This document shows positions 20,343 through 22,107 of a stretch of DNA of 32,000 bases, piece by piece (the first letter of the stretch is position 1; each line of letters opens with the position of its first letter). The position numbers and the translations under genes were made by a program. A model generated the notes under the pieces. The model was given only the letters and a program-made list of their open reading frames with translations, made no database searches and was not told the origin of the DNA. Location: contig PWLL01000077.1 of the NCBI GenBank assembly GCA_003559395.1, positions 12,225 to 44,224 on the forward strand, in the 5' to 3' direction. Source of the stretch: Candidatus Iainarchaeum sp. GTDB lineage: Archaea > Iainarchaeota > Iainarchaeia > Iainarchaeales > CSSED10-239.

Positions 20343-20632
20343 TCGAAGAAGAAACATTGTATATGGCTAGAAAGATTGCATTATTTAATAGTGAAGTAAT
20401 TTTTTTTGTAAAAAACAGTTTAACTTATTTAACAGAAAAAAAATTAAGAGATTTGTTGAACGAAAAAGAAAAAATAGAAGTTTTAATAAAAAACTCTTAC
20501 AACGCAGACACTAACTTAATAGTGGCAAACGTAGAAAATAATGATAATCACGATTTAACAAAAATAGATGTCGAATTAATACAAGAAGTTTTAAAAGAGG
20601 GAGTGAGAGAGCCGTCAATTACCCCTCCCTAA
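20333..20632 (+). CDS. Hypothetical protein; last codons are encoded by the IscB-element left end
   Basis: 99-aa ORF. The C-terminal ..REPSITPP* is read from the GC-rich left-end hairpin region. Confidence 0.45.
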   Translation: MGIIEEETLYMARKIALFNSEVIFFVKNSLTYLTEKKLRDLLNEKEKIEVLIKNSYNADTNLIVANVENNDNHDLTKIDVELIQEVLKEGVREPSITPP

Positions 20633-20641
20633 AGGAAGGGG
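20622..20641 (+). repeat. Left-end subterminal hairpin
   Basis: CCCCT-C-CC TAAA GG-A-AGGGG: 5 bp, a C.A mismatch, 2 bp, TAAA loop. Confidence 0.65.
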
Positions 20642-20892
20642 CTTGGGAAGTGATTTCTAAGAGCAATTAGTTGATTAGAGAGTTGAAAAAAATGGAAACA
20701 AAACAACAGCAGTTATTTAAGAGAAATACATACACACCCAAAGATGCTTCACAAGTCTTTGGCTCTGTGGTCTTGTCTTTAAACAGAGAGGAAACTCTCA
20801 GTGAGCAAGACTTAAAAACCTTAGATAACAGTCTCGATGTGAACATACAGTCTGGCAAGACTGAACAAAACTTGAGAGTATTTGTTTTAAAC
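20622..20892 (+). ncRNA. Candidate IscB omega-RNA scaffold (extent and guide position undetermined)
   Basis: About 230-270 nt between the left end and the conserved IscB N-terminus. GAGAG-GAAA-CTCTC (20786-20799, GNRA loop). CAGTCT-GGCA-AGACTG (20848-20863). 7-nt complementarity of AAGTCTT (20753-20759) with AAGACTT (20807-20813). Visibly more G+C than the flanks. Confidence 0.5.
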
Positions 20893-22107
20893 ATGCAAAA
20901 AAAACCAATGATGCCTTGCAAACCTGCTAAAGCAAGACATTTATTACAACAAAAAAAGGCAGAAGTTGTTAGCTGTAAACCTTTTACAATACAACTTACA
21001 ATACCAACAGGAGAAACCAAACAAGAAATAACGCTTGGGATAGATAGCGGATATAAGAATATAGGTTTTAGTGCAACAACACAAAAAAGAGAATTAGTTA
21101 GTGGTGAGTTAGAACTTAGAACAGATGTGAGTAAAAAAATTAGTGAGAGAGCAATGTATAGACGAGGAAGAAGAAATAAGTTATGGTATAGGAAGCCCAA
21201 ATTTCTTAATAGAGTAAAAACTAAATGTAAAAATTGGTTAGCACCAAGTGTTCAACATAAAATTGATACACACATTCGGCTTGTTGAAAAAATTAAGATT
21301 TTACTACCGATATCAAAAGTAATTGTTGAAGTTGCTCAGTTTGATGCACAAAAATTACAAAATGTAGACATTCAAGGTGTTGAATATCAACAAGGTCAAA
21401 CACAAGGTCATGATAATCTTCGAGCATTTATACTTCAAAGAGATGGTTATACTTGTCAGATTTGTAATAAGAAAGATGGAATGTTCAATATTCACCACAT
21501 AATTCAAAGAAGAGATGGTGGTAGCGATAGACCAGATAACTTAGTCACTGTTCATAAGAGTTGCCACGATGATTTTCATAGTGGAAAAATTAAACACACA
21601 TTCAAGAAACCTAAGAGTTTCAAGGAAACCGCTATGATGAACAATATTAAAAAGTTTGTGGTGGATAAATTAGGTTGTAATTGTACTTATGGATATATCA
21701 CTAAAAGAAAGCGTATTGAAAACAATTTAGAAAAAACGCATTACAATGATGCGTTTGTTATTAGTGGTATAAGTAATCAAAAGAGAACTAAACCTTTTTT
21801 TAGTAAACAAATTGGTAGAAACAACCGTTGTTTACAACTTAATCGTAAAGGTTTCAAACCAAGTATTAGAAAACAAAGATATAGTTTTCAACCAAACGAC
21901 ATAGTAGAATTTGAAGGCAATAAGTATTTGACTAAAGGTAGTCATAACAAAGGAACAAGAATAATAATTGTTCGAGATAACAAAAATAAGAGTGTTAGTA
22001 TTAAAAAAGTGAGGATAATATGCTTTGGAAAAGGAATTGTTTTTAGCACTCGGCAATTCCTCACCACCCTAAAGGATGGTGTCTCCTTGCCTCAAACAAT
22101 AAGATGA
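20872..22107 (+). CDS. iscB: IscB RNA-guided nuclease (RuvC-HNH, Cas9 ancestor family)
   Basis: (L/M)RVFVLNMQKKPMMPCKPAKARHLLQQKKAEVVSCKPFTIQL (PLMP domain). LGIDSGYKNIG (RuvC-I). MYRRGRRNKLWYRKPKF (bridge helix, RRXRR). VIVEVAQFD (RuvC-II). CQICN..NIHHII..DNLVTVHKSCHDDFH (HNH). HYNDAFVIS (RuvC-III). The start is either TTG 20872 or ATG 20893; the track start 20671 is probably over-extended across the omega-RNA. Confidence 0.85.
   Translation: MRVFVLNMQKKPMMPCKPAKARHLLQQKKAEVVSCKPFTIQLTIPTGETKQEITLGIDSGYKNIGFSATTQKRELVSGELELRTDVSKKISERAMYRRGRRNKLWYRKPKFLNRVKTKCKNWLAPSVQHKIDTHIRLVEKIKILLPISKVIVEVAQFDAQKLQNVDIQGVEYQQGQTQGHDNLRAFILQRDGYTCQICNKKDGMFNIHHIIQRRDGGSDRPDNLVTVHKSCHDDFHSGKIKHTFKKPKSFKETAMMNNIKKFVVDKLGCNCTYGYITKRKRIENNLEKTHYNDAFVISGISNQKRTKPFFSKQIGRNNRCLQLNRKGFKPSIRKQRYSFQPNDIVEFEGNKYLTKGSHNKGTRIIIVRDNKNKSVSIKKVRIICFGKGIVFSTRQFLTTLKDGVSLPQTIR
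22062..22081 (+). repeat. Right-end subterminal hairpin
   Basis: CACCA-C-CC TAAA GG-A-TGGTG. Same architecture as the left end; the four differences form two compensatory base-pair swaps. Confidence 0.65.

Follow-up and report, generated by a model that had tools for sequence, protein, structure and literature searches.

The question raised by this locus is whether two closely similar hairpins, one upstream of an iscB gene and one within the 3' end of its reading frame, are the ends of a mobile element, and if so, by which strand and with which transposase that element would move. The window analyzed is a stretch of 32,000 nucleotides (C103:12225-44224) from an archaeal assembly of 913 kb in 115 contigs, which is 87% complete. 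An earlier examination made without database searches, here called the sequence-only reading, took the hairpins for structured ends of the IS200/IS605 type on an iscB element without tnpA, and this identification is borne out by ISC termini, a match to the HEARO RNA family, the domains of IscB and the presence of related copies. Window positions 20614-22098 very probably constitute a 1,485-bp non-autonomous ISC insertion sequence of the IS200/IS605 family, which carries an omega RNA and iscB and lacks tnpA, with the hairpins as Y1 TnpA sites, the minus strand as the active strand and IscB as the nuclease that forces copy-back. On the archaeal virus-like contig, the element occupies a gene junction. 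The neighboring genes, as annotated with PHROGs and Pfam, provide little context and include an intein-bearing ATPase and a helicase.

The left hairpin spans 20622-20641 and the right hairpin 22062-22081, and our sequence check confirmed every coordinate and letter given for them in the sequence-only reading. Each has a stem of eight positions, a TAAA loop and a single C.A mismatch third from the loop. The two stems differ at four positions, which make up two pairs, both still Watson-Crick; by our own arithmetic, done by hand, the probability that four changes among 16 stem positions form two complete complementary pairs is ~0.002. The two hairpins have in common the 9-mer core CCCTAAAGG, which is expected ~0.09 times in the window and is found at no other site in its 32 kb. 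A coincidental repeat was considered as the source of the pair and was ruled out, as CCCTAAAGG occurred twice in 0 of 100 shuffles; both hairpins are real, and chance is excluded as their origin. They are direct copies in the same orientation on one strand, not inverted, and there are no terminal inverted repeats. No T-run follows either hairpin on either strand, so that neither has the form of an intrinsic terminator. CAATT occurs directly upstream of both (20616-20620 and 22054-22058). The left CAATT is part of the guide RNA's first stem, and the right one is part of a conserved outer stem and internal loop. This outer stem encloses the right hairpin with 5 bp, its 5' half GGCAA (22052-22056) being paired with TTGCC (22087-22091). 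The unpaired A in the 3' arm of the hairpin aligns with a column that is conserved as unpaired in the Rfam HEARO consensus.

The left hairpin is part of an omega RNA encoded on the plus strand. Using cmscan, we obtained a full-length match to HEARO (Rfam RF02033) at 20614-20848, with 126.4 bits (gathering score 83), an E-value of 4e-26 and model positions 1-211 covered; the match starts exactly at the terminus, 20614, and the scaffold probably continues to ~20890. The hairpin occupies model positions 10-29, forming the first stem-loop of the RNA within stem P1, and 20614-20621 make up the first stem. Since the left hairpin is thus also an RNA stem-loop, its conservation is not pure evidence for recognition by a transposase. 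The terminus itself (20614-20618; plus strand, GTCAA) is assigned to the minus strand, where it reads TTGAC and is the transposon-encoded motif at the predicted canonical right-end cleavage site; the boundary falls at 20613|20614. On the plus strand immediately outside, in flanking DNA at the 3' end of the ORF 20333-20632, lies the predicted guide segment of the omega RNA (20598-20613), which is assigned from its position; its 12-nt 3' part was found nowhere else in the assembly.

The iscB coding sequence (20893-22107, plus strand) encodes 404 amino acids with RRXRR/RuvC and HNH domains (Pfam RRXRR, 4e-62; HNH, 6e-11), and the nearest solved structures are 11hr (E-value 2e-37) and OgeuIscB, 7utn/7xht (E-value 8e-35). 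The frame is open from 20671, but its upstream part is omega RNA and the real start is the ATG at 20893. At the other end, the right hairpin lies inside the open frame, which runs out of the element and has its stop codon in the flank. Following the right hairpin is a linker of 17 nt (22082-22098), which on the minus strand belongs to the canonical left end. Its positions 22082-22086, at the foot of the hairpin, are the presumed DNA guide for the flanking motif, and 22087-22091 form the second half of the outer stem. The transposon-adjacent motif itself (22099-22103), assigned to the minus strand as CTTAT and reading ATAAG on the opposite one, is flanking DNA and presumably serves both as the target of TnpA and as the TAM of IscB. 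It departs from the consensus at the first minus-strand position (CTTAT vs TTTAT). The right boundary is thereby placed at about 22098|22099, to within ~3 nt.

Alignment with other copies, which the sequence-only reading had proposed for defining the ends, did fix both boundaries, the right one to the ~3 nt just given. A second copy (copy B; the element in the window is copy A) was identified at C103:2716-4213 on the minus strand. It is 71% identical to copy A, and the similarity begins at the same G of GTCA. The iscB frame is open in both copies, and that of copy B stops ~35 nt before its right hairpin. Within each copy the two loops match, being TAAA/TAAA in copy A and TGAA/TGAA in copy B. 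The flanking and terminal motifs are CTTAT and TTGAC in copy A, and TTTAT and TTGAC in copy B. In neither copy is a hairpin, a terminus, the outer stem or a guide position disrupted, and the changes between the two copies are compensated.

A hairpin also occurs without iscB at 17135-17184 of the window (plus strand), where a unit of 45 nt, made up of an 8-nt terminus, one hybrid hairpin and a 17-nt linker, is followed by ATAAA. The left arm of this hybrid hairpin resembles a right end, and its right arm and tail are identical to the left end of copy B. In copy A, copy B and this unit the flanks are wholly divergent up to GTCA, and the shared sequence starts from exactly that base. At the other side, copy B and the 45-nt unit share every base of the linker and of the 5 nt that follow it (ATAAA) before they diverge, which places the right boundary 17-22 nt after the hairpin. 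A further hairpin without iscB is found at C103:10165-10214. The sequence-only reading had stated that recurrence of the hairpins as ordinary terminators independent of iscB would speak against it. They do recur without iscB, but these units are collapsed relics and not terminators, because both ISC termini are present in them. In total, three collapsed relics belonging to at least two element types were identified in the 0.9-Mb assembly. When the whole assembly was scanned for end motifs with a loose regular expression, the matches were mostly noise, and only those on contigs C57, C103 and C109 were real. In the 21 other genomes of the same family (22 including this assembly), the collapsed-relic pattern was no more frequent than a reversed-pattern control.

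In order to place these ends in a wider family, we compared them with 98 loci encoding IscB proteins at most ~50% identical to this one. The left ends of the relatives consist of GTCAAYNA, a hairpin of varied sequence and GCTTG, and lie ~290-350 nt upstream of iscB. The right ends consist of ATTCAT, a hairpin, TCTTCTTGC, a short variable stretch and NTAAA, the arrangement ATTCAT-hairpin-TCTTCTTGC being kept in 23 relatives. In four independent pairs of near-identical copies in different contexts, identity begins at |GTCA, and in those pairs with comparable right ends it extends 16-20 nt beyond the right hairpin, ending within NTAAA or immediately ahead of it. In copy B and most relatives the right hairpin follows the stop codon or an intervening tnpA (up to 490 nt downstream), and always has the same flanking motifs.

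The covariation claimed in the sequence-only reading from the two compensated pairs of copy A also holds across these relatives, whose right hairpins were picked from flanking motifs alone. When 19 distinct elements were compared, the left hairpin proved closer to the right hairpin of its own element than to those of the others (mean score 11.1 vs 6.4); 0 of 20,000 permutations gave a likeness as high, a significance that is somewhat overstated because related loci are not independent. In some relatives (L070 and L011) the hairpins of the two ends are dissimilar, additional stems being present on the left. In an alignment of 17 right ends, covariation supports both the hairpin and a 4-bp outer stem: 85.7% of the cells are paired, eight pairs show double changes, 0 of 500 shuffles scored as high and the best register is at zero slide. 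In the outer helix alone 92.6% are paired, and three of the four pairs show changes on both sides.

Which of the two ends is the canonical left end depends on the strand. We infer that the minus strand is active and that the 5' end of iscB, which carries the guide RNA, is the canonical right end, from the geometry, the pattern of the flanks and published work. Read on this strand, the flanking motif is separated from the hairpin by 17 nt at the left end (hairpin 22062-22081), and the hairpin is separated from the terminus by 8 nt at the right end (hairpin 20622-20641). The flank on the 5' side of iscB is variable between copies and that on the 3' side is conserved as NTAAA, located 16-20 nt after the right hairpin in copy A (as ATAAG), copy B, the relic and the relatives; this is the pattern expected for a guide and a TAM, respectively. 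Complementarity links the flanking motif, at its first base, to the linker base at the hairpin foot, with three types of pair, as determined partly by inspection: T:A in 13 loci, copies A and B among them, A:T in at least five, and C:G in L019/L020/L058, where motif and foot bases on the minus strand are TTAC and AAAG, exactly as in IS608. At the right end, motif and guide, as seen by inspection, pair in the manner of IS608 at the last two positions only. Hairpin stability showed no consistent strand preference across the family. For the ISGst elements of Geobacillus stearothermophilus it has been reported that the right end delimits the omega RNA, that the adjacent motifs are TTTAT/TTCAT and that TTCAC lies at the right-end boundary (Meers 2023, bioRxiv 10.1101/2023.03.14.532601). 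By this precedent and by the minus-strand spacings of 17 and 8 nt, which come close to the 19 and 10 nt of IS608, the left and right labels of the sequence-only reading are swapped.

With the minus strand active, a dimer of a Y1 (HUH) TnpA would bind the sub-terminal hairpins on minus-strand single-stranded DNA. The left end would comprise the flanking CTTAT, the 17-nt linker with its DNA guide and the hairpin 22081-22062, and the right end the hairpin 20641-20622 followed by 8 nt, the last five of which are TTGAC. Cleavage by TnpA 3' of CTTAT and 3' of TTGAC would release a single-stranded circle, and the enzyme would rejoin the donor ends. Transcription of the plus strand would also make this right-end hairpin a part of the omega RNA, whose first stem-loop it forms, with the 16 nt of upstream flank at 20598-20613 as the guide. 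IscB would then cut the resealed empty site, in which the guide match is followed by ATAAG, and thereby force the element to be copied back. Such IscB-driven copy-back has been shown for ISGst elements (Meers 2023).

In the empty site predicted by this scheme, the flanking ATAAG gives the ORF that begins at 20333 its TAA stop, one base before the ATG at 22104. The flanks of the element contain no repeat, and the predicted joint would restore a compact gene junction. A search for the empty site with left-flank DNA against 41 related genomes gave low-complexity matches only. The exact donor-joint pattern of copy A had no match in viral or metagenome contigs, and the donor-joint patterns of the relatives L069 and L071 had none in viral contigs.

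A transposase acting in trans was part of the sequence-only reading, and the search for tnpA that it proposed yielded one intact Y1 tnpA in the assembly, located on contig C57 (L114:4948-5406, minus strand) and followed by tnpB in an IS605 element. No tnpA was found on C103. Contig C57 also carries genes for Kae1/TsaD, Toprim and GNAT proteins and contig C109 a gene for Cdc6/Orc1, and these contigs are therefore cellular and archaeal. The C57 TnpA retains the HUH and tyrosine motifs and matches the TnpA structures of ISDra2 and IS608. The ends of its element have flanking motifs in common with the ISC ends and the same kind of geometry, with TTTAA, 17 nt and a hairpin at one end and a hairpin, 8 nt and TTCAC at the other. 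At the base of the stem, however, the hairpins of the C57 element are unlike those of copies A and B, and the C57 TnpA is only 26% identical to an ISC-linked TnpA, so that its role as the cognate enzyme for the two copies is only putative. In several relatives (L019/L020, L021, L067/L068 and L082) a Y1 tnpA is located between iscB and the right hairpin, and the arrangement of these loci ties this type of hairpin directly to Y1 transposases.

Two other readings of the hairpins lead to different ends or to no ends at all. If the plus strand were active, TTAC would be the target at a left end formed by the left hairpin, and the right end, formed by the right hairpin, would be cut after TCAA, 10 nt downstream. 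Both tetramers are where the sequence-only reading had placed them (20619-20622 and 22092-22095), TCAA has the spacing of IS608 and the hairpin energies are compatible with this strand. However, TTAC lies inside the element and within stem P1 of the omega RNA, is TCAC in copy B and varies in the relatives, whereas TCAA falls within the 17-nt linker, is a different tetramer in copy B and is not conserved. The sequence common to copy pairs extends 16-22 nt past the hairpin, well over 10, and the right end is accordingly not at 22095 but at about 22098|22099. The left flank moreover has no conserved target motif, and Meers (2023) puts the omega RNA at the right end. Activity of the plus strand is for these reasons highly unlikely. 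Still less credible, to the point of being negligible, is that the right hairpin is a terminator of iscB or a coincidence of its coding sequence, with the left hairpin an RNA element only. Such a reading would fit the position of the right hairpin in copy A, inside the open frame and directly after the conserved part of iscB, but neither strand has the T-run of a terminator, and in copy B and most relatives the hairpin follows the stop codon or tnpA with its flanking motifs constant. It also covaries with the left hairpin of the same element, and in the relics it is joined directly to the other terminus.

More serious is the possibility that the anatomy is that of an ISC element as described but that copy A is an immobile fossil, its hairpins being recognized by no transposase of the host-virus pair and the element itself persisting only by IscB homing or by inertia. 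The absence of tnpA from C103 is in keeping with this, as is the only TnpA of the assembly, with its different hairpin stems and its distance from ISC-linked TnpAs. The flanking motif of copy A is off consensus, the 71% identity between copies A and B makes no recent burst visible, and relics are as many as intact copies. Against a fossil stand the intact ends, outer stem and guide positions of both copies, with their changes compensated, and the open iscB frame in each. In addition, one TnpA moved five families with merely similar ends (Meers 2023, bioRxiv 10.1101/2023.03.14.532601), and in an assembly that is 87% complete a further tnpA may be unassembled. We regard the fossil as a distinct possibility, though a doubtful one, and an ISC element with minus-strand ends for a Y1 TnpA remains our preferred reading.

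ISC elements have been described as having a conserved 5'-GTCA terminus, imperfect sub-terminal hairpins and mobilization in trans by Y1 transposases (Kapitonov, Makarova and Koonin 2016, PMC4810608). The element in the window has every ISC feature that can be tested from sequence, except the empty site, and its end architecture has already been published (Kapitonov 2016, Meers 2023). As in ISC1 and ISC2 (PMC4810608), iscB is carried by a non-autonomous element with a GTCA terminus and imperfect hairpins at both ends, inserted beside a short specific motif, apparently without duplication; mobilization by Y1 in trans is predicted here as well, and in both cases a minority of relatives have their own Y1 gene beside iscB. 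The insertion sites of ISC1 and ISC2 are ATGA or GT|GG, whereas those seen here are of the ATAAA/ATAAG type, and the host in our case is a virus-like contig of a ~0.9-Mb archaeal assembly.

The likeness to ISGst5 and the other ISGst elements (Meers 2023) lies in the omega RNA at the right end and a 5-nt AT-rich motif beside the left end. In ISGst elements, DNA guides beside the hairpins covary with the motifs, TnpA acts in trans and the motif is common to TnpA and IscB. Motifs of the same kind are present here, with TTTAT and TTGAC in copy B and TTTAA and TTCAC in the C57 IS605 element. In contrast to ISGst, the present element is known from its sequence, and its IscB is at most ~50% identical to any relative retrieved. 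With IS608 of Helicobacter pylori (He et al. 2011, PMC3201880) the element is predicted to share the single-strand logic, with one hairpin per end on the same strand, left cleavage outside the element and upstream of the hairpin, right cleavage inside and downstream, and each site read by bases 5' of the hairpin foot. The spacings are 19 and 10 nt in IS608, but 17 and 8 nt with 5-nt motifs here, and the accessory gene of IS608 is tnpB, whereas here it is iscB on the opposite strand. The omega RNA matches HEARO (Rfam RF02033) over the full length, including the unpaired A, with no difference seen in the part covered by the model.

As the end architecture of IscB elements has already been published, the finding is of little importance on its own. 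Its use lies in the boundaries, guide and adjacent motif that it provides for an intact pair of IscB and omega RNA on a virus-like contig that was binned together with an archaeal assembly of small genome size. With the polarity corrected, the oligonucleotides relevant for bench work are those of the minus strand. The right-end stretch is at once an RNA stem-loop and a predicted transposase-binding DNA hairpin, and its conservation can therefore not be credited to either function alone. A further proposal, which we consider unlikely, is that the TnpA of the IS605 element on the host chromosome (C57) mobilizes the ISC elements of the virus-like C103, and that hairpin collapse to the 45-nt unit is a regular, possibly still mobile product and not random decay. 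If this were true, transposase and guide-RNA nuclease would be split between two genomes, the former encoded by the host and the latter by the virus.

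A second ISC copy on the same contig (copy B), located on the minus strand at C103:2716-4213 of the assembly G000 (L002:1348-2845 in the fetched locus), is an intact element sharing 71% identity with copy A, the non-autonomous ISC element of the window. Copy B gives a separate HEARO match of 112 bits, its iscB is open, and both of its hairpins carry a TGAA loop. At the insertion site of copy A, stop codons are borrowed in both directions between host and element (window 20630-20632 and 22105-22107). The ORF at 20333-20632 presently ends at a TAA within the loop of the left hairpin (20630-20632). 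Copy A's iscB no longer has a stop codon of its own, and its frame runs through the right hairpin to a TGA in the flank (22105-22107), which overlaps the ATG at 22104. The iscB of copy A is about 22 codons longer than that of copy B.

Right ends were also compared between L019 and L020, two ISC copies, each autonomous, that share a Clostridium genome and are 99.6% identical except just past the right hairpin. There (positions 3225-3281 in both loci), the hairpin-foot bases in L019 are swapped for the complement of the ATTCAT side, in contrast to L020. This replacement yields a longer perfect palindrome, and the presumed DNA guide is gone.

In the window, 45 nt followed by ATAAA (17135-17184) were identified as a collapsed one-hairpin relic of a copy-B-like ISC element. 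The relic makes up the final ~15 codons of the ORF at 14998-17205, and the host frame has been kept because the relic length is a multiple of three. Further along, a 634-aa ATPase-like ORF (18008-19912) contains Pfam intein splicing domains in three stretches. Beyond the window, at C103:10165-10214, a second and more degenerate one-hairpin relic was observed: its terminus reads GTGAA, its hairpin is of the ISC type with TGAA in the loop, and its tail runs into TTAAA.

An autonomous IS605 encoding tnpA and tnpB is found on contig C57 of the assembly (L114:3785-5520, minus strand), adjoining Kae1/TsaD on a contig that is cellular and archaeal. The motifs at its ends and those at the ISC ends are homologous. 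On contig C109, adjoining a Cdc6/Orc1 gene, a one-hairpin relic of this C57-type IS605 (L115:131-187, minus strand) comprises a GTGAA terminus, a hybrid of the two hairpins of the C57-type element, and a tail of 17 nt with TTAAA after it. Collapse of this kind has therefore affected two types of element within the assembly.
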